From the NCBI GenBank assembly GCA_010356995.1, contig ML996694.1:62001-121138 (forward strand): a DNA stretch of 59,138 bases, in the 5' to 3' direction. This DNA comes from Trichodelitschia bisporula. Its lineage: Eukaryota. The position numbers and the translations under genes were made by a program. The notes beneath the pieces are model-generated. The model was given only the letters and a program-made list of their open reading frames with translations, searched no databases and was not told the origin of the DNA. Of this stretch, positions 2,036 through 59,138 are shown piece after piece. Position 1 is the first letter of the stretch, and each line of letters starts with the position of its first letter.

Positions 2036-4581
2036 ATGTCTCTCTTAGAACGAGAGGAGTACGTTTGGCCTCCAGTTGCATGTCTCGTCTAACTGTCCCC
2101 AGCTTCGTCCTCTACCACCTTAGAACTTCCTACCTCTCGATGATCAAAGATGGCGTCGGAGACCGCCTTATTCATGTTGACGCTTCGGTCCTGAACGATC
2201 CAGCGTTCCGAGCAGCCGGCTGGTTCGCCAACCCATCCGATATCCGCCGTACTTACTCCCCGCCCATCCCCACTGCCGTCACTGCAGAGTATTTCCAAGC
2301 ACCCCGAAATGTGAACCTCGTCGACCCCGGGTTTGGCGATGATGAAGAGGAGGGCGGCATGATCACCGGTGCCGGGCCCAGCGCCGACACAGTTGGTCCC
2401 GGGATGCAGACGCGCAGGAAGCGTCGTAAGGAGACACAACCGGAAGAAGAGGATAGCAGCGATCTCAGTGAAGAAAGCGATGAGGAGGGCGAAGGAACTC
2501 AGAGGTAGGCAGTTTCTGCCACTCGCAATCCCAGCTTACCCCGCAGGCCTGGGAACCAGATCAAGTTCCAGAAAATGCCTCTCCGTACGCGCGCTGGCTC
2601 GTCACCCATCCGCAGCAGCAATCTCCTTGATGGGCCCTCGGTGTTGGTCACATCTCCCTCGCACCCAGCCGATGGCAGCCGGTTGAGGCGGGGCTCTCTT
2701 GGTGCGGTAGAAGTCGTCAAGGAGCGTGCCCGTCGTGACACCACGACTAGCAGTGAAATGTCGTCGGAGAACGAGCTGGACCCCTCTGTCTTCCAGCGGA
2801 AGCAGGTAAATCCCCTTCGAGCAGCCAAGGCCGGTCGCTTGCTTGCGGAGCGCATCCAGGAGGATGACCGTGAAGACTTGCACGATATGGATCCGGGCGA
2901 GGAATCCGACAGCACTCTGTCCTCAGGCTTTGACGGCTCAGAAGACAGCGAGTCGATTCTGGACGCTGTCGACTCCGGCCCACTCACGTCACTACCGTCG
3001 CGCCCCTCTGGGGAGACGGCAATGGCCAAGTTGACGACTTCGTCGCCCAAAAGGTCAAGGCAGGGTCCCTCCGTGCTTCAAGCACTGCCCCCACCTCGGC
3101 CCATCAGCGTCATGGCACCAGTCAGCGCCTTGACTTTGGCTTTGAAAGCCAAGGATAAGAAGCCGGATGTCCCCTTCGAGAGGTTTGCCATTCTGAGTGG
3201 AAAAGGCGACCCCAATCCCATCTACATCAAGGTCTTCGCCCCATTTGCAAAGCCCACTCGATCCTATGAAGTTCTGCTGCGCCGGTCGCCCGACTCAGGC
3301 GGTGCAGTCTCAGTCGCCGAAGCCATTGGTTTGGCACTATGGCGGTATTTCGAGGAAAAAATCGAGCCTCCGATTCCCAACGATAAGTTCAACGTCAACC
3401 GATGGAACTTCCGCATGGTCGAAGACGACGAAGTGGATTACGACTTTCCAGCTCTCAGTCGCGTCCGCCCGATGGCCGACTTCACTTCCAACAACAACAA
3501 CCCTCGGCTGCGAGGCCGCTCGCGGGACAAGCCGTGGGACGAGTTTGCGTTGGTCGAAGCCAATGATAGCGAGTTCCGCGACAACCAAACTGCTACTCCG
3601 CAATACGCCGGAGACACGACTGCGGTAAGACGCGTCTCTTCACCTCCTCCAACGCTATCGAAAACTCCCGTGCCACAGGCACCCGCGTCCGTTGCCTCCG
3701 TCGTGCCCGTCTTGCCCAGGAATCCCATCATTGGCCCCACATTCTCGGTAGCTGCATTCCGTAGCCCAGCTGCACCACTCCTCGATGCGCCTGTTGCTCC
3801 CGTATCCCATGCGACTCCCCGCATGGGGCCGCCGAAAACTCTCACTGTCCACTTCACGGACAATAACTTTGTCTCTATAAAGACTCAAGTCGAAGTCACT
3901 ACCGACACGTATATTGCCGAGGTGTTTGACCAGGTCTGCAAGCGTCTCAAAGTGGATATGGCCGCCCACGTACTCAAAGTTTCAAATTCCGCAACTGTTG
4001 CGCCTTCAGACCGCACGGTTGAAGCGCTAGGCGACCGCTCGGAGCTGGACCTCGTGCGGCGGAGGTTTATCGGAGACGGCAATTTCGGTCTGAGCGGTTC
4101 GCCGGGCAGCAGCAGCCCGAATGCGCCTCTGCTCATCGCTCCTGGTGGGACGCCAAAGAAAGGCAAGAAAGTCGGCACTCACCCGCTCGCTCAAAGGAAT
4201 GACGCCCTCATGCTTTTCGGGAGCAACTCGACATATAAGCGCTACTACGTGGTGCAAAAGAAGCAGATGTCTTTCTCGTCTTCGACGGCAAAGATCATGG
4301 CTCTGGAGGGCGAGTATATGCACGTCATGCCAACGTCGTCTGAGCACCATCCGACCGCGACCAAGTTCTTCGAGACGCCGGGCAAGGTCATGACGGTTCA
4401 CTTCAGCAGTGTTATTGGCACCAAAGTCTCTCGACGTCATCCGCGCATGTTCCGGGTAGTTGTCTATCGGGAGCGCGAGCAGAAACGCTACGACTTTGAG
4501 ACGCAGACTTCGGATGAAGCTCAGGAAATCGTCAGTGAGATCAAAAAGGGTGTCGCGCGGTTCCATGAGGGCGCGGCTTAG
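2036..4581 (+). CDS. sin1: TORC2 subunit Sin1/Avo1; join(2036..2058,2103..2504,2547..4581)
   Basis: N-terminal FVLYHLRTSYL...DGVGDRLI and RTYSPPIP; CRIM region (VAEAIGLALWRY, NRWNFRMVEDDEVDYDFPAL, FALVEA); C-terminal PH region (YKRYYVVQK...KRYDFET...AQEIVSEI). Both introns are canonical and keep the frame. Confidence 0.93.
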
Positions 4582-4898
4582 GCGTGGGATGGGTCTGGGA
4601 GGGAATGAGGGCGTTTCGGATGAAATAAGGATGGCCGGATGGGATTCTTTCGCGGGCAGGCGGGGCGTAGGATACTGCTTCCTGATATAAAATGCAATGT
4701 TTGCGCTTCCACGCCATACTGGCTTGTCCCTGACGTGCTCTGATCTCTTTGTGCCCATCCCGCCCCCATACCGTAGGGCTGACACTCGGACCGGTCCGCC
4801 GGACTAACGTTTATCCCGATCGGCATCGTCACCAGGCTCCGGTCACGGCCCCGAGCTTCAACGCTCTCACAGTACATACGCCATGTGTCTTTAGAGAC

Positions 4899-7668
4899 AT
4901 GCCCTATCCGTCATCCTCAAACTCAAGTAGCCTGTATGGCCAGACTAGTGGTGAATCGTCTTCGAGCCGCATCGGCGCGCGCCAGCCGCATGTTGAGGAT
5001 GCAGACGATGATGCGGATAACGCGCCGGAGCGCACTGACGACTTAGCTTCTCAGTATGTCCGTCCGCTCAGTTAGTAGACGGTTCTAATGGTAGCAGTAT
5101 CTCATTCAAGCGCCGTGCCAAAAATACCAGCGTGTCGGGCTTCGCGCTTCCCCGCTTTCTCTCCGGCTTCGCCCAGCCCCCCCATCCCAACGGCGAGGCC
5201 TCGTCAAACCGCTCCGCAATCGATTTGCCCCTCCTCGATACAGACGATGATAACCCACCGGGTCAAACAAAGGATGGCTCGGTCTACGATTGGTACGCCG
5301 AGGGCCCCGGTCGGCGTGTCGGCTACGACGATCTCACGGCCATCGACTGGATCTTCGAGTACGCGAAGGAGCGGCAGCGGTTGCGCGCATTATACTCCAC
5401 GGCGACGGGATTGGCGGGATATGTGCGCCAAGTGGCGGATGCGGCGCAGATATGGGTCGTGTTGATTGTGACGGGGATTGCGGTCGGGGCGATTGCGGCG
5501 TGCATTGATGTTGTGAGTGACTGGTTAGGGGATTTGAAGGCGGGGGTGTGTCGGGATGTGGATCAGGGAGGACGGTTTTATTTGAATAGGGCGTTTTGCT
5601 GTTGGGGGGCTGAAGGTACGTTGAGGGACTTGCGGAGGGTCGGGCTAACAGGCACAGACCTGGCACAATGCTCGGACTGGCAACCGTGGAGTGATGTATT
5701 TGGCGTTCGGGCATCGAAGGGAGGCTGGATCCTGGAATACATGGTGTTTTTGATTTTATCTGTGGGTTCGGAATCCCATCAAGTGGTCATTGCTGATTTG
5801 CAGGTGCTCTTTGCGGCTTGCGCCAGCGTCCTAGTGAAGAACTATGCGATGTATGCGAAGCACAGTGGGATACCCGAGATAAAGACGGTTTTGAGCGGGT
5901 TTGTCATTCGGCGTTTTATGGGTTCCTGGACTTTGCTCATCAAGTCACTGGGATTGGTATGTTGGCTATATTCTATTTGACTCCTTGCTAATGAAACCAG
6001 TGTCTAGCAGTGGCTTCTGGACTGTGGCTCGGGAAAGAGGGTCCCCTTGTACATGTTGCGTGCTGTTGTGCGAATCTTATACTCAAGGCTTTCGACACCC
6101 TCAACAGTAATGAGGCACGAAAGCGAGAGGTGCTCTCGGCTGCGGCTGCGGCTGGCATCTCTGTTGCATTTGGGTCTCCCATCGGTGGAGTCCTCTTCAG
6201 CCTTGAGGTACGAATTCGTCTCAGTCTTCTTTTTATTACTGACGGCCAACAGCAACTCTCATACTACTTCCCCGACAAGACGATGTGGCAGAGCTTCGTC
6301 TGCGCCATGATCGGCGCTGTCACCTTGCAGGCCTTCAACCCCTTCCGAACCGGCAAGCTGGTGCTGTATCAAGTCACATATCACAGTGGCTGGCATGGCT
6401 TCGAAATAATACCCTTTGCGCTCTTGGGCATTCTGGGCGGCGTGTATGGAGGACTGTTCATACGCCTCAACATGAAAGTCGCCCAGTGGCGGCGAGACCG
6501 CACATACCTCAAGGGTCCAGTTCTCGAGGTCGTCCTCGTCGCGCTCCTCACCGCCATCATCAACTACCCCATCAAATTCACCCGCGCCCAGACCTCCCAG
6601 CTCGTCTACACGCTCTTCGCCGAATGCATCGACATAACCGACGACCAACTCGACCTCTGCCAATCCGGCCGCGCAAACACCGGCGTCATAACCCTCCTCC
6701 TCATCGCCGCCGTCCTCGGCTTCTTCCTCTCGGCCATCACCTTCGGCCTGCATATCCCAGCTGGCATCATCCTCCCCTCCATGGCCATCGGCGCGCTGTA
6801 CGGCCGCGCCGTCGGCCTCATCCTCGAGGTCTGGCAGCAGGCTCACCCCGCTTGGCTCATCTTCCGCAACTGCGAGGCTGACATCCCGTGCATCACTCCG
6901 GGCACGTATGCCATCATCGGCGCTGCGTCTGCACTCGGCGGCGCGACGCGCATGACCGTCTCTATCGTGGTCATTATGTTCGAGCTCACGGGGGCGCTGA
7001 CTTACGTCCTCCCCATTATGATCGCCGTGCTGCTGAGCAAATGGGTCGGGGATGCGATATCCCCGCGCGGCATTTACGAGTCCTGGATTCAATTCAATGG
7101 GTACCCGCTCCTGGATAATCGCGACGATAATGCGGCGCAGGTGCCGGATGTACCGGCCGCTGATATCATGACCCGCATTGAGGATCTATGCGTCATTACG
7201 GCGACGGGGCACACGGTTGCCACCCTCACCGATCTGCTGGCCAAGCACCCGTACCGCGGCTTTCCGGTCATCGACGACCCGCGCGACGCGCTGCTGCTCG
7301 GGTACATATCGCGGACGGAGCTGGACTTTGCATTAAGGGCTGCGGCGCGGGGACGGGCCGGTGCCGCGGGCACGGAGGTTGTGTTTGCGCATCAGGCGCT
7401 GGGGGAGATGGGGCAGGTTGTGGACTTCAGGGCGTGGATGGATCAGACGCCGATAACACTGGGGGCGAGGGCGAGTTTGGGGCTCACGGTGAATATGTTT
7501 CAGAAGTTGGGGTTGAGGTATGTGCTTTTTGTTGAGAGGGGGGGGTTGAGGGGGTTGTTGACTAAGAAGGATGTTTGGGTTGCGTTGAATGAGGAGGGGT
7601 TGGGGGGGGGACGGGATGAGGGGGTGGGGGTGGAGAGGGGGGAGGATGTTGGGGGGGAGTATGAGTAG
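4899..7668 (+). CDS. CLC-family chloride channel/transporter with C-terminal CBS domains; introns ~5054-5094, 5616-5657, 5762-5803, 5957-6000, 6208-6252
   Basis: Motifs YDDLTAIDW, SGIPEIK, GKEGP, AFGSPIGGVLFSLE, GIILPSMAIGA, RMTVSIVVIMFELTG; CBS-like YRGFPV...GYISR and MDQTPITL. Splice sites are frame-consistent. Confidence 0.95.
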
Positions 7669-14889: not shown

Positions 14890-16050
14890 CCTCATCTCTC
14901 TGGAAACACGATGGTCAACGGTATCATTTCTCTGGTGCATGATGAATGCTGTGGACGGTGCTTCCCCGAGTATTGGGCGCTTCACCATCTGAAGTTGAAA
15001 TAAGGTTTGCGAAAATCCGGTGAGCGTTCAGACGCCACATGAAAGAGGTATTCCCATACCGTGGACAGTAATGCACAGAGAGATATTCCCTTGGGAATCT
15101 GCTTTGACATGAGGCTTCGGCGATTGGATCAAGCTCTACGCTCTGGAGCAAGAGCGACGCCGATAGACTCCCGGGACAAGCGACCAACTATGTCCCAAGT
15201 TCCAGAGGTCGAACATTCACCCGCTCGGAGCTCTCCGATATTGCCGCTGAAGCGTGACTTGCTGCAAAACCGAGTAGATACATATGTAATGCAAGCAGAA
15301 TGTTTAGTACATCGTCTTGCTCATGTGATGCAGTAAATCTTACATACGCTCCTTTTAGAGTGGAAGAACCTGCTTGCAGCTTTGCAGCCTAAGCCTGACT
15401 TTGACTTCCGCCCTTCCAAGCGGGCACGGCGGGGTTGAATCGGTCGCGCCTGTCAACAGCGAGTTCCAAGGGCTAACTTAAAGTATCATGTTCCCCCTCC
15501 TTCCTCATCTTTTGCTGTGTGATAAACATGTCATTGGAGGAGAGGGAAGTAGACGGCTACGCTTTTATTCGGATGGCCCTTGGTCCTTTCTGCAGCTTTC
15601 GAGAATGTTGAGATTTTATTGGCTGGAAGCGTCCAGGCGAATTTTGAACTTTTATATAAACTTGTATATAAGGAGGGCGCATTCCGTTGAGAGAACAGGT
15701 CGGAGTAAGGCTACTGCGTTTTGGGTCGCATTCGGCTCAGTGCTGGCCTCGGCGCAGGGGGAGAAGCTGAGCGACATTTTAAGCCGCAAGGCAACGGTGC
15801 GCGAACCACGCTCCGGCCCTTGTAACCACCAGCGCGGGCCGCGCACCGCCGAATGCGTATATGTTCAATCCAACTCCCTCGGATGATGATGATTCTGGTG
15901 CCATTGCTCGCACTTTGTTAGATTCGGTCGCTACCGGCTTTCGACGCTTTCTAATCAAATCAAACTTTCACAACTTACTCTTCAAGACCGAGCCTAAATG
16001 CGTTCCCAAGGATCTGAACTCGGCACGTTCACCGCAATGCGTGCCAGTCC
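14890..16050 (+). repeat. Upstream region and 5' end of the Est1/SMG6-like gene, duplicated near the right end (14890-15761 inverted at 57654-58530; 15708-16050 direct at 58731-59138)
   Basis: Near-identical sequence by eye. ORF track pairs 15061..15336(+) with 58083..58358(-) and 15488(+) with 57931(-). Confidence 0.95.
15651..15672. promoter_or_regulatory. Palindromic TATA element TTTATATAAA plus adjacent TATATAAG, ~340 bp upstream of ATG 15998
   Basis: TTTATATAAA (15651-15660) is its own reverse complement. ATTGG (reverse CCAAT) at 15618-15622. Confidence 0.5.
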
Positions 16051-19033
16051 CGCATCTTCCATGCTGCGAGATAAAGATGCTTCGATGAAGGGGAGCCTTC
16101 CATTGGAAAGATCGGCCTCTTCTCAAGACGGAAGGTCGAACCATCGGCCGTCGTTGGATGGAACTCCCAGAAACAGGCGCACATCGTCAGTTCGAGAACT
16201 CCTTCCACACCCTGCCTCACCTAACGTCCCATTAGCGACACTTCATCTCAAGTCTGTCATCAGGTGTCGCATGGTTCTCCTTCACCAACGGTCTCTCCTG
16301 CAACCCGTATGCGCCACGCTCCTTCGCCCACGAAATCGACCAGCCATCCGTCGAACCAACGTTCACCTCACGCTCACTCCCCTCCTCCGACCGTCGATCA
16401 TACATCTCCAACACACAACATTTCCTTGCCGATGAAAACTAAGAATTCTTTGAACCAGTCCTCGCCTCTTCCAACTGTCTCTCAAGCATCTCCCATACGT
16501 CACAATCCTGCCATGAAAAAGAAGACCAACCTCCATTCAAATCAACATGCCCTTCACACCCACACACAGCGCACTCGTATGTCGGTCCCTGACGGTATCA
16601 AGGCTTCGGGTCCTAAGACTCCACGCCCTGTTCCTCCGTCCCAGTCGAAGAGGCGAGGAAATCAGTCCAGACCACCAGAGCCTGATCACCCACGCGACCC
16701 TCGATGGCCTGCCCTTGCTCGCCAACCGGAATCGAGGACGATATCGCCCGAACAGCTGGCTACGGAGGTCAAGTCTATATACCAGGGGCTCACAATGGTC
16801 GAATCGAAGTGTCGACACGTCGACAAGGCCCAGGTCGCGGCGTTGAATGATGGTGCCCCTCTGGAGGATATTCACTTCCAAGCCCTTCTTGCCCTGCACA
16901 GGACCCTTCTTCACGAACATCATGACTTCTTCCTCGCCAGCCAACACCCGATGGCGACGCCGGCGCTTCGAAAACTCGCGCAGAAGTATACGATGACGGC
17001 GAGGATGTGGAAGCATGGTATTCATTCTTTTCTGGAGCTTCTTCGGTACCGGCTTCCAGAGAGCCTTGAATACATGCTCGCCTTCATCTATACCGCGTAC
17101 CAAATGATGTGTCTTCTGCTGGAAACAGTACCCTCCTATGACGAGACCTGGATCGAATGTTTAGGGGACCTCGCAAGATACCGCATGGCCATCGAAGACG
17201 AGTGTATGCAGACGCGGGAGATCTGGGCTGGCGTTGCGCGTTCTTGGTATACTAAGGCGGCCGACCGTTCTCCTACCGTCGGCCGGCTATTCCACCGCCT
17301 CGCCATCCTTGCACGTCCTTTCGCCGTTCAACAACTTCATCTCTACAGCCTCTCACTCACCAGCGTTATCCCCTTTCTCAGCACGCGTGATTCCATCCAA
17401 TCTCTTCTTGATCCAATGCTCGCACGAAATGATGCAACACCAATGGGAATTCCCGAAAACGACGTTGAGTTTATCACAGCCATAACCATCGTCTTCAAGC
17501 GACAAAAGCTCGACGCCTTCCATCATCACGCTGATAAGTTCCTTAAATCTCTCGATTCCAGCTGCCAGGGTATGGGGCAGAAATGGCGGGATCATGGCTC
17601 GTTTATTGCCTTCACATTGGTTGCTTCCCTCTTTGATTTCGGCTTCGATAACCCCCTGCGACGGTTGTACCATTGGGGCAATCTCAAGCGGATCTCCGAG
17701 CAAAATAAGCCACATGCAGAAGACGATACCCAGGGCAACCCGCCGGCGCCAACAGCTTGGGAGCCCTTGCAGCCGCTCCCGCCTCAGGATCCCGAAACCG
17801 CCAAGGTCTCCGAGTACGAACTCTTTCTCACAACTCATACGTTTGCTGTTGTCCTCTCTCGCCGTTGCGACAGGAATTGCTTACCTTTTGTACACGTGCT
17901 TTGCTGTTTCTTGTATTCCTTGACATCCGTTCCGCGTACCGAGTTTTCTATTGCGTATACGTCGTCTGCGAACCGCATCTTAGAGGCTCAGCCCTGGTCT
18001 GCGCTCTGCGATTATGCCAATGCTCTGGACAAATCGGAAAGGGAGGATGCGAGTTATCAGGGTCCAGACTTCGTGCGACCAGAGGGAGGCAATGGACCTC
18101 TGCCCGAGGACTTTAAGCTCAGGGGTCAGATTTATGCCGCCCATGGCTACTACCCCGGCGACTGGTTTGAGGGTAAAGGGATGGGTGTGGACGACGATGA
18201 ATGCTTGATTGAACGGGCAAGCACCTCTATCATCCGAGCCGGTCGCGTCTTATGGCTGATGCATCGGCTGGCCGCTGTAACAACCACTGCACTCCACTTT
18301 CTCAATTTGCTGATTTGAACAGGATGAACTATATATTGGATTCGATCAGGCGAACAAGCAGTTCTACGTCGTCGCAAGCTCTGCTAGTCCAAGCCTTAGC
18401 GCAGGTATCATGGCGCCAGAAAGTGTTGATGACAATGTCGACCTCGTCATGTCGGATGCTTCGCTGCCCGAGCCGATGCAGAACGATATCCCTTACAATG
18501 TACGGTATACCCCTCCCTCCCTTCCATGTCGCTAAACTTTTAAGGTTGTTGTTGTGGACAAGAGCACGCTTGAACGGGATGAGTTCGAGGGAGTTGTGCA
18601 AATCCACTGGGACGTAATTGTTCCCTTTGAATGTAGGCTTTATCAACTCTGTCTAGCAAGACTACTCACGCTCGCAGTTGCCTCCCGTCTGCCTAAGGAC
18701 TCGCTTGCCGAGAAGCGATTGCGTGATGCCATCAAAAATGGAAAGAGCAATGTCCGCGTCTGGACTCAGGACGGCGACGACCGGACGGACGAGCTTCGGG
18801 TCAAGGACGAAGACGAGATGGACATAGACGGCCAAAATACGTCCATGCAGGACCAGGAGATTGTCATGAAAATTGCACGGAGGGCCACTGATCTGAACCT
18901 GGACGGGAAAGAGGGCCAGGCTAAGACCGTGCTTCTGACTGAAGATGGCGATGTGGAAACCAGGGCCCTTGGCAGAGGACTCAAAGCGATGGCCTCCATG
19001 CTTGCCATCAAGTTACGCGGCGGGAATGGGTGA
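15998..19033 (+). CDS. Est1/Ebs1/SMG6-like protein (~949 aa): disordered N-terminus, Est1 TPR-like DNA/RNA-binding domain, degenerate C-terminal PIN-like domain; join(15998..16185,16236..18276,18323..18499,18545..18632,18678..19033)
   Basis: Fungal Est1-family motifs ISPEQLATEVKSIY, HRTLLHEHHDFFLASQHP, RMWKHGIHSFLELLR, TWIECLGDLARYRMAIED, GRLFHRLAILARP, LPEDFKLRG. C-terminal VVVVD, VIVP, VLLTED resemble PIN. Four introns give 2850 nt in frame. Confidence 0.88.
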
Positions 19034-49481: not shown

Positions 49482-51618
49482 ATGCCTTACACACCGCCGT
49501 CTCAGCGGTCCCCTGCCTCCTCCAAATCTAACAGCCCGACCGTCTCCCGTACCCACTCGTTTGACAACACCTCCGTTCCCTCGGAGCGTCCTGTTATCGC
49601 GCGCTCCAAGTCGGCAGCGTACCTCCACAAGCATCGCCGCTCGCCGTCCGTTTCGGACCACTCTAACAATGGGAACATGGCGGTAAACGGCTTCGGCCAG
49701 CACATCCCCCGCAGCAGGCACGACGCCGCGCGGCATGTCTCGCCTGCTCCTGCAGTCGGATCGCCGCAAGCTGGATCACCTCTGGGCTCCGAAGACGACT
49801 ACCGTGGCCGCCAGATCCAGCACCTCGCTGAGTCGCTGAAAGAGACCATGAAGATATCGAAGCGCACACAGTCGCCGACTCGGGAGGTGCTATCACCGGT
49901 GCTCGCATTAACGGCATCGAAGCCTGCTCTCCCGCCATTGACGGCTGAGGCGCGTAAGATTTCGCACTCGCGGTCGTCGAGCGAAGTCCAACTGTCGGCG
50001 CTCGAGACGCTCACTGATGGTCCGGTCGCATTGACATCTGAAAGCGATGATGACGAGTACTATGGGTCGAAGCCTCTGATGGTTCGCAAGAAGTCCGGCG
50101 AGCTCGTGAAACCGGCTCTGCGACCTCCCATCAATCGTCGGCGCCCGTCCAGCATGCCTGGCACGCCGACATTCGTCAAAAACGTGCATTTCAACGAGGA
50201 CGCCCAAGTCCGCCACTTCTTGAAAGTCGATAAGCCTATCGCCGTCAGCGCGGGTTCGTCACCCGTGGAGACCTACGACAGCGAGTCGGAGTACCCGTTT
50301 TACCACGCTCGTTCGAAGCCCAAGGTCGAGTGGGAACTCCGCCTCGCCAACTTCCCACGGGACACTCATGAGCGGTTGGCCCAAGCTGTTCGCGTTGAGC
50401 GTTTGTTCCTGTCGTCGGACTTCAAGATGCTGATCGGAACTGTGGCCGTGGCGAACCTGGCCTTCCACAAGCATGTTACTGCACGCTTCACATTTGACTA
50501 CTGGAGCACCACATCCGAAGTTACTGCGGAGTACAACAATGACGTACGGAAGAAGCAGAGCAGTGACGGCTTTGACCGGTTCAACTTTTCCATCAAGCTG
50601 TCCGAGCAGGCCCATCTTGAGAGCAAGACGCTTCTTCTGTGCGTCCGGTACAACGTCGAGGGCCAGGAGTTCTGGGACAGCAACCAAGGTAGCAACTACA
50701 TGGTCGACTTCGTTAAGAAGGTCGCGCCATCGCCGGACCAAAAGCATGGAGTCGGATCTGGGGTTGGACCGTTGGGGGCCATCCCCCGCAGCCGCCACTC
50801 GCCGTCAGTGGCACGCCCTCGGTCATACCCTGCCGGTAACCATGGTGATGATGACTGGAGCCACACATTGGAACAGCCTGCTCCTGCCCCCAACTGCCTC
50901 CGCACTGATCCCCTGCGGGCCGGTAAGAATGCGCGCAAGCAGCCGTCGTATCCGACCCAAGTTCCCCGCGCCAAGCCGGGACAGCCCATCAAGCAGGCAT
51001 TTTCGACCCGATACGACTTTTCGGCTTCGCTCTCGGCCGCACTAACCACGGCACAGACGGCTCTCGGTGACCAGAGCGGGCTGAAGATGAAGGACGTCGG
51101 CCGGCAGTCAAGGTCGTCCGCCCCCGCTGTCCAACCTGTTAACAGCCCGCGGCCCGATGCGTTGTCGTCTGTCAGGCCCGATGTCCATTCCGCGGAGTAC
51201 AACGATCTGATCCAGAAGTTCTGTTATGTACGTGTGCCCGTCCCGGGGAGCGGCCAACACGGCGGTGTACTAATGCTGGACACAGTATCGCCCCAACCCT
51301 ACTCCTACACCGGTGTCTTCACCCAAGGACAACGTCAAGGCTCCGAATACCAAGACGCCGTCAGGCGTTCCTGATGGTCCGGTCAACTCTCCTCCCTCGG
51401 ATACCGACACCGACAATGAGAGCGGTCCGTCATCCGGCTCAAACAGTCCTCCCTCTCCGCGCGCTGAACTTCAACAACTTGACGGTACCTGCGACTCCCA
51501 GTCCACGACGCGAACCGCTAGCCCTTCGTATTTCTCGACGTCGCCGCGCCTCCTCGCGCAGTATCGCTCGGCATCGCCTGCCCTTCAGTTGCCACACCAG
51601 GTGGTCGGGCATGCCTGA
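49482..51618 (+). CDS. gac1: Glycogen-targeting PP1 regulatory subunit with CBM21 domain (Gac1/Gip2-like); join(49482..51227,51286..51618)
   Basis: MPYTPP start, RKKSGELVKPAL, PP1-docking KNVHF (RVxF), CBM21 motifs GTVAVANLAFHKHVTARFTFDYW and CVRYNVEGQEFWDSNQGSNY, FSTRYDF, YNDLIQKFCY. Confidence 0.9.
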
Positions 51619-53189
51619 AAAATGGAACCGGAAAAAAAACGACTAGAAACGACCACGACAATATCGTTGTCATGGTGTTTTACGATCTTATGATTGAGAC
51701 GAGCTGAAGTGGAGGGCTTTGCTGCTTGATCCACGAGTTCGCGCGGCTTTTTCGGAGGATGGGGTCTGGGAATCCTTTTCTCGCTGGGACATGTGCGCCA
51801 TTTGTGGTGCGGCCTGGGAGTCAAAGGTTCCTCATGGCAACGCCCGGCTCTGGATCATTCCTGCGTGTCTTTTTTTTATGTCCGGTGGCGCTTTGCTACT
51901 GCCGAGGGGGGATCAGGCGCTATATCCAATAGACGGTTTGTAATTTTTTGCGGTTTTTCTTTCTTGGGTCCCGCGGTGGGACATCTTCTCACCTCTGAAG
52001 CGCCTGCTTCGCCCAAAAGCTCGGGGTTTCGTCTGCTTCGCCGTTGTGTTTTTTGCTGCCATTTTGTGCGTGGGACCCGTGGGCCTTTTTCTCTCGCCTC
52101 CCACTGGGTTTCGGGCTGCGTGTCTGGGTTTGTTTTCGGTCTTCGTGTCGTCATTTGAAGCGGAAACACACAGCACACGTATTGCAAGGCGTTATTGGCG
52201 TTTTGTGGTTCGCGTTTTTGTGAGTGCGGTGCAGAGGCGGCCGTTTGTGTAAGTCACCAGGCCTTCTTTTCCGGCTCGGGCTTTGTCGCTGTCGTTTTTG
52301 GTTGCTGAAAAGCGAGGGGAGGGAGACTTCTTCAGGGGAAAGGATGACGCCGTGCGATGAGGAATGGATTTTATCGCCTGCATCTTCTTTCGACTGGGAG
52401 TCTTCTTCGCCTCGTCGCATGGTGGCAATGGTTGCTCTTGCCGTGTGTGCGCCGAGACGTGGACGGACGGGTTTGGGCTGGGGGGAGGTTGGCTGGACAT
52501 TGGGGATGGCTGGATGGGGTAGATTCCACTCGAGCTGGGCGAAGACGGGTGGTTTGGAGCTGGTGCAGCCGATAGGTCTAAGGCCTTTTGGGGGATCGGG
52601 GGCAATGGTGAACGTCTAGGCATCATTAGGCTCAGAATGAGGATATATCTTACTCTCTCAGTGTGCTTGCTGTGGTGATTTGTCGACTTGGGAGGAGTTG
52701 GTGAGGGTGTTAGGTATGTTTCATTTCTTGTTCTGGGCCCGCGCTGATGGTTTTAGGTGCAGAGGCGAGGGATTGGGACCTGATCTGCATATCGTGGGAG
52801 TGGTACGTGCAGGTGTAAGTGCCGCTCTGAGGACGAGATTATGCTGATGGACGGCGATAGGAAGCCCGTTCCAATGCCAGCATGTCGAACCAAACCACCG
52901 AACCATGGCGGAATGTTATTGCGAACTCTTTTCTAAGTTGATTATCGGTATGTCGTCTCCCCCGCGCGTAGCTGATTGGCCGCCGCCACCCGCGCGGCAA
53001 TCTTACCCCGCACTCGCACGGGCCCTACCGCATTGGCTCGTGCCTCAACGTCACCTCTTCCGTCCACGACACTCTTCCTCACCATACATACCCTCCCACA
53101 CTCTGGGTTCTGACTCCGCTGCGGATCTGGCTTACGGCGGTATGGACATGGGTGTTTGGTGAGTGTGTGGTTATGCTGTGTTCTATTTG

Positions 53190-53515
53190 GGCGGTAGCTG
53201 ATGGTGTGTATCCTTGATGGAAGGGTTTGTCGTCATTTGGCTGTTTTTGCGAGGCCCGCAGGCTGGGCGACGGCGGAGAAACGGAGCTGAGCTAGCAGCT
53301 TGGTTTAAGAAGGTGGTGAGGTGGGCTTCTAGGTTGGAAGGGTTTATCGTCATTTCCCTGTTTTCGCGAGTCCGGAGCTGGGGGACGGCTTCGTAGCTCA
53401 CCGAGCAAGCATCTTGGTACACGAAGGCGGCGGACTGTCCTCCTGCAGTTGGAAGGTTTTATCATCATCTCGCCCTTTGCGCTCGTCCGTTCGCTGGATG
53501 ACAGCTTCGTCTCTC
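53190..53515 (+). repeat. 3 x ~116-bp degenerate repeat derived from the WYTKAAD-GRLYHHLAILARP segment (gene 17238-17345)
   Basis: ggaagggtttgtcgtcattt (53219), ggaagggtttatcgtcattt (53336), ggaaggttttatcatcatct (53451). Confidence 0.8.
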
Positions 53516-53637
53516 GCGAAGCAAGCAGCGAGGATGTGGAAGCGTGGCATTCATTCCTTTCTGAAACTTCTTCGCTGTCGGATTTGACTGAGGATTTGAC
53601 TGACATTTTCTCAAGACCGTTCGCTGACCTCGGGCGT

Positions 53638-53926
53638 TTCTGGAGAGCACCGGGATCGGATGACTGAAGATCTAGGAGGAGCCCGAATGGCCTGCTTTTG
53701 GAGAGCCCGTGGACCGGATACCTGGATACCTAGGGAGATCCAAACAGCCTGCTTCTGGAGAGAACTTGGACCGGATGCCTGGGAGACCTTGATGGAGCCC
53801 AAATGGCCTGCTTTTGGAGAGCCCATGGACCAAATGCTCGAGGAACCCAGGAAAATGCAAACAGCCCGCTTCTGGAGAGAACCTGAACGGAATGCCTGGG
53901 AGACCTAGGAAGACCACAAATGGCCA
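53638..53926 (+). repeat. 5 x ~58-bp tandem repeat (A-B-A-B-A) derived from ETWIECLGDLGRYRMA
   Basis: Units start tt(c/t)tggagag at 53638, 53696, 53753, 53812 and 53870, and end alternately in aatggcc and aaacagcc. Confidence 0.85.
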
Positions 53927-54152
53927 GAACGCGTGTTGAGGCCTCCTGGTGCCGCACCCAGGCAAAGAGGGACTTCCAATGCCATGCTCGGGAATGAAGT
54001 ACGCTCTGTTAAGGAGGTCTCTTTCAACTTTTTTTATGATATTTCTAGCATCCCTCAAACACTTTCAAAGGCTTATGGCCCTCCCCCGGACTCTCCTTCA
54101 CGAGCACCATGACTTCTTCCTCGTCAGGCAGCATCTGATGGCGATGCCAGCG

Positions 54153-54349
54153 AGGATGTGGAAACATGGCTTCCATTTCCTTCTGAGCTTCTTCGCTACC
54201 GGGAGGTGGAAACATGGAATACCTTCCTTTCTGGCTCTTCTTCTCTACCTGGGGGTGGAAACATGGCATTCATTCCTTCCAGAGCTTCTTCACAGCCGGG
54301 ATGTGGAAACACGATGTTCATTCCTTCCTGGGACTCCTTCACTGCCGGC
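54153..54349 (+). repeat. 4 x ~49-bp tandem repeat of the MWKHGIHSFLELLRYR segment
   Basis: gtggaaaca core at ~54158, 54206, 54255 and 54303. Confidence 0.9.
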
Positions 54350-56045
54350 TTCCGGATAGCCTTGGATACATGCTGGCCTTCATCTATACAGCGAACCAAA
54401 TAATGTGTCTTCTGGTGGAGACCGTTCCTTCCTTCGACGGGACCTGGATCGAATGTTTGGGAGACCCCGCGAGGTACCGCATGGCCATCGAGGGTGAGCG
54501 TATGCAGACCGCGACATTTGGACTGGCGTTGCACGTTTTTGGTATACGAAGGCGTGCGACATTTGGACTGAAGTTGAACGTTTTGGTATACGAAGACGGC
54601 CGGCCGTGGGAGACCGATCGGCCGACTTCATCACATACCCGTCCCAAGACTCCAAGACCTGTTCCAGCGTCCGAGTCGAAGAGACGAGGAACCCAATCCA
54701 GACCCGCAGAGCCCGATCTCCCACGCGACCCCGGATGGCCTCCTTAATCCATGACCATATCCCCCGAGCAGTTGGCCACAGAAGTCAAGTATATATACCA
54801 GGGGCTCACAACGGTTCGAGTCGAAGTGCGGTCACGTCGACAAGTCCCAGGTCGCGGCTTTAAACGATGGTGCCCTCCTGGAGGATCCTCACTTCCAAGC
54901 CCTAGTTGCCCTCCACCGGACCCTTCTTCACGAGCATCATGACTTAATCCTCGCCAGCCAACATCATCTTGCCATTCTTGCTCGTCCCTTCTCCCTTTAC
55001 GAAGACCATGACTTTTTTCTCACCAGCCAGTATTCGATGATAACGCAGGGGGTTCCCAGAAATGAGCAAAAATGCACGATGCCGGCGAGGATGTGGAAAC
55101 ATGGCATTCACTCCTTCCTAGAGCTTCTTCACTCGCGGGTTCTGATGTAGGAACTTGCGGGGATTATGTGACTTTGTCAGTATCGCTATGTGGCTGGCGC
55201 AGCTGTTGAAGCGGCACTGCGCGCCCATGAGGGACAGCATGGTCGATCACATGGTGGATCGGCTGCGCGCTGGGATTCCGCCGGACGTACCCAAGGGACT
55301 GTTGGAGCTGTTTGGCGTTCTGGAGTCCATGAAGCTGGGTTGTATCCGTTTGCGTTGGAATGCTAGGATCTAACAGCGCAGGATGTGGCTAACCACCAAA
55401 TCCGGCACCTCTACTGCCTCATTGTGGACACCATCTCGTTCGAACAGGCATGTGGAAACATGGGAAATGTCCTTTTTTGGAGCTTCTTCGTCACCGGGAC
55501 TCTCCTCCACGAGCATCATGACTTCTTCCTCGCTAGCCAGTACCCGATGGCGACGCGTGCGCTCCCCAAACTCTGGCAAAATGTATGCGATGCCGGCGAG
55601 GATGTGGAAACATGGAATACCTTCACTTTCTGGAGCTTCTTCGCCGCTGGGGCGTGGAAACATGACATCCATTCCTTCCTGGAGCTCCCTCGCTGTCAGA
55701 CTCGATTCCGAACATTTGTCAACGCCGTTCACTAAATGATGGATCACCTCAGGCCTCTTGGACAGCACTTGGACCGAATGCCTGGGGCATCTTGGAAGAT
55801 ACCGAATGAACATAGTCAGGCAAAGCAACTTCAGGACCTTGCGGGGAACGAAAATGCGCTCCGCCAAAGACGTCTCTTCGGCTTGTTTCGCCACTCATAC
55901 GACCTGACGCGCCAAGAGGACACGATCCACAACACCTGTATGCGAATAGGTACACGCGCTTCAAATCAGAAGGACGTCTAGGTCTGCAGTGACGACGCAC
56001 CATCTGGATTTGACCGAAAGCGGCATTTTCCATGGAAGCTGACAA

Positions 56046-56481
56046 GCCGACTCCCAATACCCGTGGTACCTGAACAGCTGGCGACAGAAGTCAAGTCCAT
56101 ATATGCCGGCCTCACTATGGTCGAGGGAACTCAACAAGCCGACAAACGCTAACGACAGCGCCGGGAGATAGTCTTATCTCCACGGTACGCGCTTCCAAAC
56201 CCCTATCGCCGTCTATGGAATACTGGTCACCCACGAGTACCTCGACCGCTTCTTCGCCTCGTAGTATCCCGCCGGTCTGGACCGGGACACGGCTAACTTC
56301 CATAGGAAATGCCACTTCCGCCTGCTCTGGACCGGGAGACCGTTAACTTCTATGGGGAATGCCACTTCCGGCCACTCTGGACTGGGACACGGCTGAGTTG
56401 CCTCGACCATAGTGAGGCCGGCATACATGGACTTCACTCTTGCAGCCAGCTGTTCAGATACCGCGGGTATTGTGGGTCGGC
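56046..56481. repeat. Inverted repeat, 81-bp arms (56046-56126 / 56401-56481), enclosing a ~50-bp x2.5 tandem repeat
   Basis: Arms match at about 71 of 81 positions by hand alignment; the inner 25 bp (tatgccggcctcactatggtcgagg) are perfect. Confidence 0.9.
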
Positions 56482-56724
56482 ACGAATGCCAAATTTTTTT
56501 TTTCGAAAAGCAATAATCTCGAAGCACTCCAAGCGACAGATACGAAACCATACCTGCCCAAACTGGAAGTTTCGCAGATGTCCGACCAAGGAATGGAAAA
56601 CAGCCCGAACCGTAGACTCAGTACAACGTATGTCAGTCCACCACAAATAGAAACAATGAAACCCAACTTAAAGAACTTGGGCTTGTGTGGTGACCGTTCA
56701 CAGTTTCTCTCATGTGACTTCGTC

Positions 56725-57032
56725 CTAAGGGTTCTTGACGAATCTCTCCATCACGGTCAAGCCACGTGTGTCCTCCCCATCAGCCAGTCGAACCGTATTG
56801 ACGTCGAACTGGATGCCCATCTGCGCCAGCACGGCAAGGTGCCTGTTCGTGTGGGCTGAGGCGCTGGTGCTTGGTGGGTGGGCTGCGGTGATTTGGTCAT
56901 GCCTGGCAAGGTTTTCGGCCGTGAGAGGGCTGTAGCGGTGTTAGTGTACGGACTGCTGATGGGTGGGTGGAGTGAAAGGTGTTGGTTGTAAGGGAGGGCG
57001 AAGACTTACTTCGACGACTGGTTCTGTGCCAT
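56725..57032 (-). CDS. Small orphan protein (75 aa, MAQNQSSNPLTAENLARHDQ...MERFVKNP); complement(join(56725..56929,57010..57032))
   Basis: GTAAGT donor, CTAAC branch point and CAG acceptor give 228 nt in frame. TATAAA at 57270-57275 (-) with a CT/CA-rich leader. Confidence 0.6.
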
Positions 57033-57078
57033 GTGCGCGGTCGTGGTGGTGGTATTGGTGGCAGTCGTTGTTGAGGTG

Positions 57079-57188
57079 GGTATGGATGACGAAGAGAGCA
57101 AGCGAGTTGAGGGGCGGCTATGGATAACGAAGAGAGCAAGCGAGTTGAGGGGTGGGTATGGATGACGAAGAGAGTAAGAGAGTTTAGG
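57079..57188. repeat. ~38-bp tandem repeat x ~2.8 in the leader of the small orphan gene
   Basis: tatggatgacgaagagagcaagcgagttgagggg repeated. Confidence 0.9.
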
Positions 57189-57653
57189 AATGGAGGCTGA
57201 GTTGTTGCTAAGGGATTGGAAGGTGTAAACTGGAAGTGGTGATAGGGAAGTTGCTCGGCGGGACATGTCTTTATATCAAGCACATTTCACAGTTTTTACG
57301 CCTGCAACCTGCGATGGGAGGCAGTAGACCATACTTGCATTATGGCTGATAGATCCAGTCGAAACCAGCGAGCCGTGGTGCGCACCTTCATGGCGGGGGG
57401 TGGGTGAGGTGCGATGAGATAGTGTACATCAAGGGCGAACCCGTCGGTAACTAGGGTGCAATTCGTAGCGTGTTTTTTATTGGCCGCACACACGCGTCAA
57501 GGGCGGATCCCACTTGCAGATACACCCCGGTTGTGGTGTCGCTAAATTCATCTTGCGGTGCGCGAACCGTCTGCCTGAACACATCGAAGCAAGTTGCAGG
57601 ATATAAGCTTACTTGGGGCTCAACGACTGGCGTGTGGTGGATGTACGCACGTC

Positions 57654-58530
57654 CCCCCTGCGCCGAATGCGACCCAAAACGCAGTAGCCCTTACTCCGAC
57701 CTTACTCCGACCTGTTCTCTCAACGGAATGCGCCCTCTTTACCTCTTTATATACAAGTTTATATAAAAGTTCCAAAATCCGCCTGGACGCTTCCAGCCAA
57801 TAAAATCTCAAAATTCTCGAAAGCTGCAGAAAGGACCAAGGGCCATCCGAAAAAAAGCGTAGCCGTCTACTTCCCTCTCCTCCAATGACATGTTTATCAC
57901 ACAGCAAAAGATGAGGAAGGAGGGGGAACATGATACTTTAAGTTAGCCCTTGGAACTCGCTGTTGACAGGCGCGACCGATTCAACCCCGCCGTGCCCGCT
58001 TGGAAGGACGGAAGTCAAAGTCAGGCTCAGGCTGCAAAGCTGCAAGCAGGTTCTTCCACTCTAAAAGGAGCGTATGTAAGATTTACTGCATCACATGAGC
58101 AAGACGATGTACTAAACATTCTGCTTGCATTACATATGTATCTACTCGGTTTTGCAGCAAGTCACGCTTCAGCGGCAATATCGGAGAGCTCCGAGCGGGT
58201 GAATGTTCGACCTCTGGAACTTGGGACATAGTTGGTCGCTTGTCCAGGGAGTCTATCGGCGTCGCTCTTGCTCCAGAGCGTAGAGCTTGATCCAATCGCC
58301 GAAGCCTCATGTCAAAGCAGATTCCCAAGGGAATATCTCTCTGTGCATTACTGTCCACGGTATGGGAATACCTCTTTCATGTGGCGTCTGAACGCTCACC
58401 GGATTTTCGCAAACCTTTATTTCAACTTCAGATGGTGAAGCGCCCAATACTCGGGGAAGCACCGTCCACAGCATTCATCATGCACCAGAGAAATGATACC
58501 GTTGACCATCGTGTTTCCAGAGAGATGAGG
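57654..58530 (-). repeat. Inverted near-identical copy of 14890-15761, including the palindromic TATA at 57758-57767
   Basis: Reverse complement matches with few SNPs and short indels (11-bp tandem duplication ccttactccga; microhomology deletion at tcggc). Confidence 0.95.
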
Positions 58531-58730
58531 GAGACTTCTGCCTTGCCCCCTTTAGGGCGTCCTCCGATCACCTTTTGTCGCCTTTTTTTCGAGTCTTCGG
58601 CCTTGTCATCTATTCCAGATACATCGGACTCGGCCATTTTTCCACGGCCGCCCGATGATGCGATGGCCACAGGCTACCCGAAAACATCGTGGCCTCGCCA
58701 AACCACAACATAAGCTACAACTCAACCTGA

Positions 58731-59138
58731 AGGCTACTGCGTTTTGGGTCGCATTCGGCTCAGTGCTGGCCTCAGCGCAGGGGGGAGAAGCTGAGGCGAA
58801 ATTTTAAGCCGCAAGGCAACGGTGCGCGAACCACGCGGGATTACGTGTTGGCCCTCGCTCCGGCCCTTGTAACCACCAGCCCCATGAATGGAGGCCCACC
58901 AAACAACTGCTTTCGGGCGTCGAGGGCCGCGCTCCACAGAATGCGTACATGTTCAATCCAACTCCCTCGGATGATGATGATTCTGGTGCCATTGCTCGCA
59001 CTTTGTTAGATTCGGTCGCTATCAGCTTTCGACGCTTTCTAATCAAATCAAACTTTCACAACTTACTCTTCAAGACCGAGCCTAAATGCGTTCCCGAGGA
59101 TCTGAACTCGGCACGTTCACCGCAATGCGTGCCAGTCC
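58731..59138 (+). repeat. Direct copy of 15708-16050 carrying two extra segments
   Basis: Near-identical to locus 1 apart from insertions near 58835-58855 and 58880-58920. Confidence 0.95.
59086..59138 (+). CDS. Start of a second copy of the Est1/SMG6-like gene, truncated by the window edge
   Basis: MRSRGSELGTFTAMRAS versus MRSQGSELGTFTAMRAS at 15998. Confidence 0.7.
   Translation, partial: MRSRGSELGTFTAMRAS

Follow-up and report, generated by a model that had tools for sequence, protein, structure and literature searches.

As described below, a 3.3-kb stretch of the genome of the dothideomycete Trichodelitschia bisporula, at 53.2-56.5 kb of the window (the whole 59,138-nt stretch of DNA that was analysed, positions 62,001 to 121,138 of contig ML996694.1), is built largely from about 20 diverged fragments of 35-340 nt. 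All of these come from one 750-nt segment of an Est1/SMG6-like gene, hereafter gene 1, to which they are 70-85% identical at the nucleotide level, and gene 1 itself stands intact 37 kb upstream. With moderate confidence, we interpret this array as a dead, lineage-specific Est1/SMG6-like paralogue that was amplified internally, was later rearranged and is now weakly transcribed. We favour this interpretation because of the identity of the origin, the synonymous bias of the differences, the persistence of that bias from copy to copy, repeat periods that are multiples of three, and in-frame parallels in other fungi.

The pieces, already described in an earlier note on this DNA as derived from one segment of gene 1, were found by blastn, by tblastn with the gene 1 open reading frame (ORF), and by a six-frame search with a profile made from 26 family members. 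The E-values of the blastn high-scoring segment pairs (HSPs) went down to 1e-83 and the longer pieces were 79-85% identical to gene 1, as compared to 62-71% for the 14 best orthologues of other taxa, implying that the homology is far above chance. By blastn, 1640 of the 3292 nt of the array align to gene 1. When degenerate tandem units and profile-only matches are included, the Est1-derived share is about three quarters by our own tally; to say that "most" of the 3.3 kb derives from the gene, as the note did, is right for this total but not for the blastn alignments, and 55142-55450 comes from a gene of the Tcp11 type. The pieces are nearly all in sense, as had been claimed (16 of the 18 blastn HSPs are plus and two are minus), and the C-terminal half of the gene is indeed unrepresented: the six-frame profile search gave no match to it at E<1 in the array, and nothing past profile position 442 of 770.

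The motif counts reported earlier were essentially right as well. There are nine copies of MWKHGIHSFLELL (starting at 53528, 54142, 54202, 54255, 54292, 55085, 55450, 55596 and 55654), about seven of TWIECLGDL (in 54292-54510, in 55757-55813 and in the 57/58/117-nt tandem block at 53638-53925), four of GRLYHHLAILARP (at 53219, 53336, 53450 and 54962) and three of EQLATEVKSIY (at 54763 and 56069, plus an inverted copy at 56403-56455). Of five LLHEHHDFF copies that had been counted, four are clear (in 54060-54152, 54641-54963, 54995-55142 and 55497-55643) and the fifth (56178-56270) is weak. Expressed as residues of gene 1, the order along the array is 327-360 (three times in tandem), 245-264, 290-309 (about five times in tandem), 204-344, 116-228 with 344-353, 216-265, 248-263, 213-261 with a second MWKHG piece, 291-310, 141-180, 200-229 and finally an inverted 163-180. 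The earlier remark that the array is not colinear, unlike an ordinary pseudogene, is fair, but the order also fits head-to-tail partial units with deletions. Whole blocks were duplicated too, since 54082-54280 resembles 55491-55679 and 53525-53689 resembles 55643-55808.

The Est1-derived tandem repeats have periods of 117, 57/58, 48 and 45 nt, all four of them multiples of three, which is the frame-keeping unit length of an in-frame repeat expansion; two other tandem repeats, not derived from Est1, have periods of 50 and 38 nt. One stop-free frame (54755-55147) still reads through three successive pieces in sense. No intact reading frame crosses the array: the pieces are disordered and lie in three frames, and the longest ATG-initiated ORF encodes 177 aa. 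Frameshifts were found in at least four pieces (54142-54202, 54292-54560, 54641-54963 and 55497-55643), and some replacements strike residues that are invariant in the family. A Pfam scan of the 95 stop-to-stop frames in 52650-57660 recovered the Tcp11 domain only, plus two chance-level matches.

The array thus lacks the continuous frame and the ordered domain of an Est1/SMG6-like gene, and it shows the homology and disabling lesions of an unprocessed pseudogene without the colinearity. It resembles a transcribed unprocessed pseudogene in being a DNA-level copy of a neighbouring family member, with frameshifts, stops and no long ORF, that is present in RNA-like contigs. It differs in its scrambled order, in its roughly eightfold representation of the 750-nt segment, with tandem amplification in places, in carrying an insert from a second gene, and in a signature of constraint that exists between the copies and not merely with respect to the parent.

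The insert is a genomic fragment of an unlinked gene with a Tcp11 domain, which lies flush between two Est1 pieces. The parent is encoded on another contig of the same species, and the fragment is 90% and 83% identical to it in two exons. A 44-nt intron (55338-55381), complete with a CTAAC branch site, is present in the array, meaning that the fragment was copied from DNA. A processed (retro-copied) origin accordingly fails for the Tcp11 part, while the Est1 segment is uninformative on this point, as the parent has no intron there.

To describe divergence at the codon level, 15 pieces (498 codons) were compared with gene 1, the null being the same substitutions placed at random in 2000 simulations. 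Silent differences affected 130 codons and residue-changing ones 109, against expected values of 50 ± 6.6 and 180 ± 7.1; neither number was reached in any of the 2000 simulations. Only 2 sense-frame stops were present in the pieces (8.1 expected, P 0.01), and the differences at the three codon positions were 66/70/180 (chi-square p 6e-18). At two-fold third positions we observed 0.289 transitions and 0.049 transversions per site; the corresponding values were 0.063 and 0.061 at first and second positions, and 0.202 and 0.189 at four-fold sites. These rates by degeneracy class indicate that the excess is specific to synonymous changes, and they rule out hypermutability of CpG or of third positions as the cause of the pattern. 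Repeat-induced point mutation was also rejected, as C-to-T plus G-to-A changes (81) were not in excess of the reverse ones (84); the ratio of transitions to transversions was 165:116. Taken together, the synonymous bias and the depletion of stops indicate that the copies were constrained coding sequence for much of their history.

Constraint on gene 1 alone would not suffice: by our reckoning it would give a third-position ratio of about 1.7 at most, whereas about 2.7 was observed. Moreover, the bias was found when copies were compared to one another. Seven copy-to-copy pairs (144 codons, a small sample in which two pairs share run R3; Table 1) gave 25/28/54 differences by codon position (p 8e-4), with proportions of synonymous and nonsynonymous differences (pS and pN) of 0.55 and 0.165. 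Differences at four-fold sites were 31/73 from copy to copy and 95/243 against gene 1. In the codon alignment of R4 and R6a, two derived residues are held in common, and about a dozen silent changes followed. These pairs, the degeneracy classes and the R4/R6a alignment all point to purifying selection on the copies after duplication. One functional gene sampled at different times cannot give a synonymous excess greater than the neutral part, which leaves either coexisting constrained copies or several diverged functional sources. When first- and second-position changes were polarised with 14 outgroup sequences, 90 were assigned to the pieces and 23 to gene 1, suggesting that the piece lineages were relaxed, but for part of the time only. 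Methodologically, codon-position statistics alone can reveal the history of a scrambled array of gene pieces, and can tell a repeat-expanded gene that died afterwards from an accumulation of dead fragments. In the present case, they indicate that coding constraint acted on the pieces before as well as after their multiplication.

The same helices have been duplicated elsewhere. We searched 1.84 billion representative proteins with a 61-residue hairpin of gene 1, and among the 150 representatives listed ten contained 2-4 matched hairpin stretches (P0135-P0140, P0142, P0169, P0215 and P0230), such proteins ranking at the top. KPM43187.1, from Neonectria ditissima, contains the MWRHGIHSFLE unit four times in frame and is otherwise a full-length protein, and another predicted protein has three LHEHHDFFLASQHPSANP units. 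Repeated units also occur in KAK2022102.1 from Colletotrichum zoysiae, a degenerate-looking protein, and KIV83162.1 from Exophiala sideris is multi-unit, with a distant second domain. An intact ORF through the repeats, absent from the array, is therefore found in the predicted proteins of other fungi. The copies within one protein have private residues in common, meaning that the duplications were independent events. Such proteins are rare: more than one unit was seen in just one of 268 other proteins examined, and that one is a cluster mate of a multi-unit protein.

Extra copies were absent from the top 120 full-length relatives. No array lay beside the relatives in 80 metagenome loci (783 kb in all, 39 of them with at least 3 kb of upstream sequence). 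Double HSPs in loci L074 and L077, considered as possible extra copies, were adjacent pieces of one gene. A special propensity of these helices to duplicate is not shown by the counts, which cover this one segment and family. In-frame expansions of helical repeats (TPR/14-3-3-like solenoids) share with the array the amplification of single helices or helix pairs and the periods in multiples of three, and in-frame versions are seen in predicted proteins of Neonectria, Colletotrichum and other fungi; the array, by contrast, no longer has an open frame, its units are scrambled and it lacks the remainder of the protein. We consider the array itself an evolutionary curiosity that opens no long-standing question, and the in-frame duplication of the same Est1/SMG6-like helices in predicted proteins of unrelated fungi a lead. 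A full-text search of the literature found no account of such an array. One preprint (10.1101/721753) includes Est1-domain genes among those listed for accessory chromosomes of Fusarium oxysporum.

We propose that the N-terminal helix-coding part of a paralogue (LLHEHHDFF, MWKHGIHSFLELL, TWIECLGDL, GRLYHHLAILARP) underwent repeated head-to-tail duplication, possibly by slippage, unequal exchange or microhomology-mediated joining, and that much of this amplification may have occurred within a coding gene, while the frame was still translated and constrained. The gene would then have died and lost its C-terminal half. Gain of the unlinked Tcp11 genomic fragment and an inverted duplication would have followed through illegitimate joining, with frameshifts and deletions accumulating. 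What is left today would be single-copy DNA represented in spliced plus-strand RNA-like contigs, devoid of a long reading frame and presumably of any present function.

A number of observations weigh against this scenario. No intact frame is left and many junctions shift the frame (for example at 55497), so that a former long ORF is something we infer. The copy-to-copy test comprises only the 144 codons mentioned above. Short 48-nt MWKHG pairs compared among themselves (three pairs) differ uniformly across codon positions, 8/11/12, meaning that these units may have multiplied after the death of the gene. The outgroups used for polarisation are distant (64-66% nucleotide identity), and 130 third-position differences were left unpolarised. 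The order of the pieces shows 6 descents in 15 steps (our own tally), no different from random; consequently, the data do not establish that units were arrayed head to tail. There is no trace of the C-terminal half, and extra copies occurred in none of the 120 top relatives and none of the 80 metagenome loci. Pieces originating from several diverged functional paralogues, since lost, would yield the same codon pattern. Finally, even at 15-30% divergence the array is still present and transcribed, which leaves room for an unseen function.

The main rival, unlikely in our judgement but deserving serious attention, is a non-coding mosaic formed by break repair or replicative template switching, at a site that never coded, with short stretches repeatedly taken from at least one then-functional Est1-type paralogue and once from the Tcp11 gene. 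All four junctions that we inspected were direct, without filler and with 2-6 nt of possible microhomology, and the 0.3-kb intron-bearing piece of an unlinked gene flush between Est1 pieces would be a foreign templated insert. The microhomology is only suggestive, as some 20% of later divergence blurs the original bases at the junctions; direct or inverted repeats within the parent segment that could account for the junctions were not found. A mosaic would also agree with the non-colinear order, with the one inverted piece and with the use of one short gene segment only, and fragments of functional genes would differ synonymously from gene 1 anyway. On the other hand, four-fold differences are as large from copy to copy as against gene 1, and by our calculation a mosaic would have required several diverged source genes; in the DNA-like run, nothing matched the pieces at 80% or higher identity apart from gene 1-type contigs and one 49-nt match. 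The sense orientation of 16 of the 18 HSPs and the tandem periods in multiples of three also speak against a mosaic, as do the derived residues common to R4 and R6a, followed by mostly silent divergence.

Microhomology-mediated break-induced replication, fork stalling and template switching, and templated insertions likewise join short templated segments directly, with possible microhomology, and one template of the array came from another contig. Such rearrangements usually yield copies that are all of one age and lie in either orientation, whereas the pieces here are nearly all in sense, diverge from each other by 13-33% and show a coding-type pattern. The footprint of template switching suggested by the earlier note is partly supported, by the direct junctions, the 2-6 nt overlaps and the Tcp11 insert, but random insertion of dead fragments does not predict the long coding constraint. 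Helitrons and Pack-MULEs capture gene fragments, and the array is similar to such captures in combining fragments of more than one gene in one transcribed unit with an annotated chimeric ORF. It differs in having single-copy word depth and not the multiple copies of a mobile element, and no ends or transposase were seen, though element ends were not searched for.

A broader interpretation, which we hold to be rather unlikely, would link the array to the multi-unit proteins. The N-terminal helices would form a module that has multiplied repeatedly and independently in several lineages of filamentous ascomycetes, with selection retaining the resulting multi-hairpin proteins, the array being an extreme and recently disabled member of an unrecognised paralogue class. 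Its stop-rich sense transcript might even feed back on the pathway of the parent, a decay or telomere factor.

Transcription of the array was deduced from two runs of a second sample (X1 and X4), which we treated as RNA solely from their spliced joints. The GT..AG intron of the upstream CBM21 gene (51228-51285) is missing from both, whereas the DNA-like run (X2) contains it. In the X1/X4 contigs, 53157 is joined to 53223 and the sequence continues unspliced to 55217; others extend over 55196-56627, with a joint from 56627 to 56704. As spliced plus-strand joints bracket the array, it is part of a spliced plus-strand RNA. This transcript is possibly read-through from the CBM21 gene, the contigs giving no start, end or level. 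Contig depths were 61.6-184.8 for the array, 2280-6470 for the neighbouring gene and 1445-1926 for gene 1-type contigs, values that cannot rank expression.

On this basis, the array might be a functional RNA locus, namely a sense long non-coding RNA or a source of hairpin RNA that titrates or silences Est1/SMG6-like genes or exerts feedback on nonsense-mediated decay (NMD), but we regard this as improbable. It would account for the two canonical plus-strand introns that bracket the array in the RNA-like contigs and for the convergent minus-strand spliced transcript that ends alongside, and the array is old yet surviving. Transcription does run through a structure able to form a double strand, as the RNA-like contig 55196-56627 includes the 88-nt inverted repeat, and 56046-56481, when folded as RNA, gives a long hairpin (minimum free energy -237 kcal/mol, z -14). 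However, near-perfect complementarity to a target is lacking: exact matches of at least 21 nt between the array and gene 1 were not found on either strand, only two matches reached 20 nt, and for the hairpin arms the longest exact match to gene 1 was 11-12 nt. There were no Rfam matches in 52500-59138, none of the 80 related loci was similar, and the contigs may stem from read-through of the strongly covered CBM21 gene. The proposal of a small-RNA or antisense generator, or of a decoy, therefore fared poorly, also because those transcripts that can be oriented are sense only. Judging from these sequence comparisons, a regulatory role is not supported, and we saw no sign that the array would act on the intact gene.

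We give equally little credit to the possibility that short chimeric proteins, among them the annotated 170-aa Tcp11-Est1 model, are still encoded in parts of the array. The existence of the annotation, the depletion of stops and the stop-free frames of 131-186 codons would be in keeping with it. But this model reads its two MWKHG pieces out of frame, and Pfam recognizes just the Tcp11 part. Its intron is not spliced in the listed array contig, where the 44 nt are retained; the spliced joint occurs in a contig that has the parent gene's differences. Replacement of family-invariant residues also argues against function as a protein. For annotation purposes, the 170-aa model is best handled as a chimeric ORF inside a pseudogene.

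Silent cassettes that donate sequence by gene conversion are known from Borrelia vls, Neisseria pilS, trypanosome VSG pseudogenes and chicken pseudo-V. The array is like them in consisting of partial, promoterless, mostly sense copies located 2.6 kb upstream of an expressed-type copy, and in having few stops and a protein-like pattern of substitution, indicative of constraint in the cassettes. That it serves as a donor library for the neighbouring expressed copies, as the earlier note had envisaged, is nevertheless very improbable. The longest runs of identity between pieces and gene 1 were 8-20 nt, as in shuffled alignments (P 0.20-0.90 in six of six pieces), which excludes recent gene conversion, and the longest exact match was 20 nt. 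Over the 211 nt compared, the gene 1-type contig had the gene 1 letter at 25 of 25 listed differences from the array piece, with no mosaic visible there. Furthermore, the cassettes contain frameshifts, and some stops even if these are depleted, their replacements affect invariant residues, and they represent a conserved core instead of a variable region. We know of no biological reason to diversify an Est1/SMG6-like protein.

An assembly artefact in this repeat-rich stretch can be practically dismissed, because, despite a break at 55196-55217 in the short-read contigs of every run, contigs of the second sample (X1, X4; 53223-55217 and 55196-56627) and of the DNA-like run (50000-55217 and 55196-57729, overlapping by 22 nt) reproduce both sides with 0 differences. 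Word depth over the array in the DNA-like run was 430-439, the same as in the single-copy flanks, and no other contig of that run fell on the parts of the array that are neither Est1 nor Tcp11. The array is single-copy DNA at present. In run X5, from another organism, a 196-nt contig at depth 2.9 is identical to 55526-55721, which looks like carry-over and not homology; a 56-nt match (82%) within a 31-kb contig of the same run is uninformative about an array there.

Table 1. Coordinates of the array, its parts and the associated features (window positions)
Feature	Position	Strand	Description
Gene 1, parent-type Est1/SMG6-like	15998..19033	+	ORF 16264-18318, Est1 domain; 18554-19033, weak PIN match
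Sole gene 1 segment found in the array	16610..17355	+	Residues ~116-364 of the ORF; profile positions 193-442 of 770
Further intron upstream of the array	52803-52860	+	
65-nt intron	53159..53223	+	GT..AG (GTGAGT...CTGAT...AG); removed in contigs, which then cross the array unspliced
Three ~117-nt tandem units	53203..53527	+	Each with a GRLYHHLAILARP-type piece (residues ~327-360)
One MWKHG piece, then 57/58/117-nt tandem block of TWIECLGDL-type units	53525..53925	+	Whole block homologous to 55643-55808
Run R2	54057..54634	+	Residues 204-344 in order; four tandem 48-nt MWKHG units (54142-54350); 45-nt tandem duplication (54511-54595)
Run R3	54631..54991	+	Residues 116-228 (15-nt deletion, 1-nt frameshift), directly joined to a HHLAILARPF piece (344-353)
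Run R4	54995..55142	+	LLHEHHDFF...MWKHGIHSFLELL hairpin, residues 216-265; shares stop-free frame 54755-55147 with the end of R3
Fragment of unlinked Tcp11-domain gene	55142..55450	+	Residues 222-305 of the 590-aa parent P0121; PF05794, E 2.8e-15
Annotated 170-aa chimeric gene model P0122	55188..55735	+	Tcp11 fragment plus Est1 pieces, two MWKHG pieces out of frame
Runs R5 and R6	55447..55814	+	MWKHG piece, residues 213-261, second MWKHG copy, TWIECLGDL piece
Run R7	56012..56273	+	EQLATEVKSIY piece (141-180) and weak LLHEHHDFF-type piece (200-229)
Inverted repeat	56046..56481	.	Arms 56046-56133 and 56394-56481, 87.5% over 88 nt; encloses 50-nt tandem repeat 56269-56394
76-nt intron, downstream end of array transcript	56628..56703	+	GT..AG (GTATGT...CAG)
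80-nt intron of minus-strand transcript converging on the array transcript	56930..57009	-	GTAAGT...CTAAC...CAG
Inverted duplicate of gene 1 upstream region (14890-15740)	57658..58530	-	96.6% identity, 0.87 kb
Second gene copy, upstream region and first codons	58730..59138	+	Corresponds to 15707-16050

As for the parent, gene 1 has 2828 relatives at E≤1e-3, the closest being 52-53% identical. The relatives listed all carry PF10373 and some also PF13638, and are named DNA/RNA-binding domain-containing protein or NMD factor. Gene 1 itself gave only a PF22695 match in the Pfam scan (19 bits, under the cut-off of 27), and its ORF at 18554-19033 matched the PIN family PF13638 with 16.7 bits, under the cut-off of 21.9. 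Through its PF10373-bearing relatives, gene 1 can be assigned to a large filamentous-fungal family predicted to have an Est1-type DNA/RNA-binding (14-3-3-like/TPR) domain and, in part, a PIN domain too. Conservation in the family is focused on residues ~134-369 of the gene 1 ORF, numbered from its ATG.

A second copy of the gene does exist downstream of the array, though not directly so, as had been stated: it starts about 2.6 kb on, and a minus-strand spliced transcript and the inverted 0.87-kb duplicate lie in between. Nine aligned positions differ between 58730-59138 and 15707-16050, and the second copy also has 22- and 41-nt insertions and two single-base ones. The window stops about 50 nt into its coding region. 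A contig of the DNA-like run corresponding to 54299-54509, with 38 differences to the array, carries the gene 1 letter at all 25 listed differences, and the word depth of the gene 1-type contig was about twice that of the single-copy flanks (870 vs 430). This hints weakly at near-identity of gene 1 and the second copy over the part homologous to 54299-54509. The two are a much younger, near-identical pair than the array pieces, with their 70-85% identity; being so much older, the pieces cannot have the pair as their source.

The 0.87-kb stretch (14890-15740 and 57658-58530) is upstream of both gene copies and holds just short ORFs, with no Pfam match. One RNA-like contig joins 58501-58730, specific to the second locus, to gene 1-type sequence from 58730 on, possibly as a chimeric contig or a strain difference. 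The RNA-like contigs at 58501-59138 at first suggested a third copy of the gene, which we rejected, given that the placeable differences from 58730 on match gene 1. The 49 nt at 55508-55556, containing the LLHEHHDFFLASQ motif, are matched by another contig of the genome, in which nothing else of the array is present; this suggests that at least one more distant member of the family is encoded in another part of the genome.

In the region around the array, run X1 gave no cover at 57625-57929. The RNA-like contig of the CBM21 starch-binding-module gene (49482-52657) reaches 52657, only some 150 nt short of the first intron in the array transcript. The region of the minus-strand spliced transcript (56900-57480) contains low-complexity ORFs and a 38-nt tandem repeat (57070-57188). 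The window as a whole has fungal characteristics, with a G+C content of about 55% and short GT..AG introns, and its housekeeping genes include those for PRCC, Sin1, a CLC channel, an MFS transporter and the CBM21 protein.

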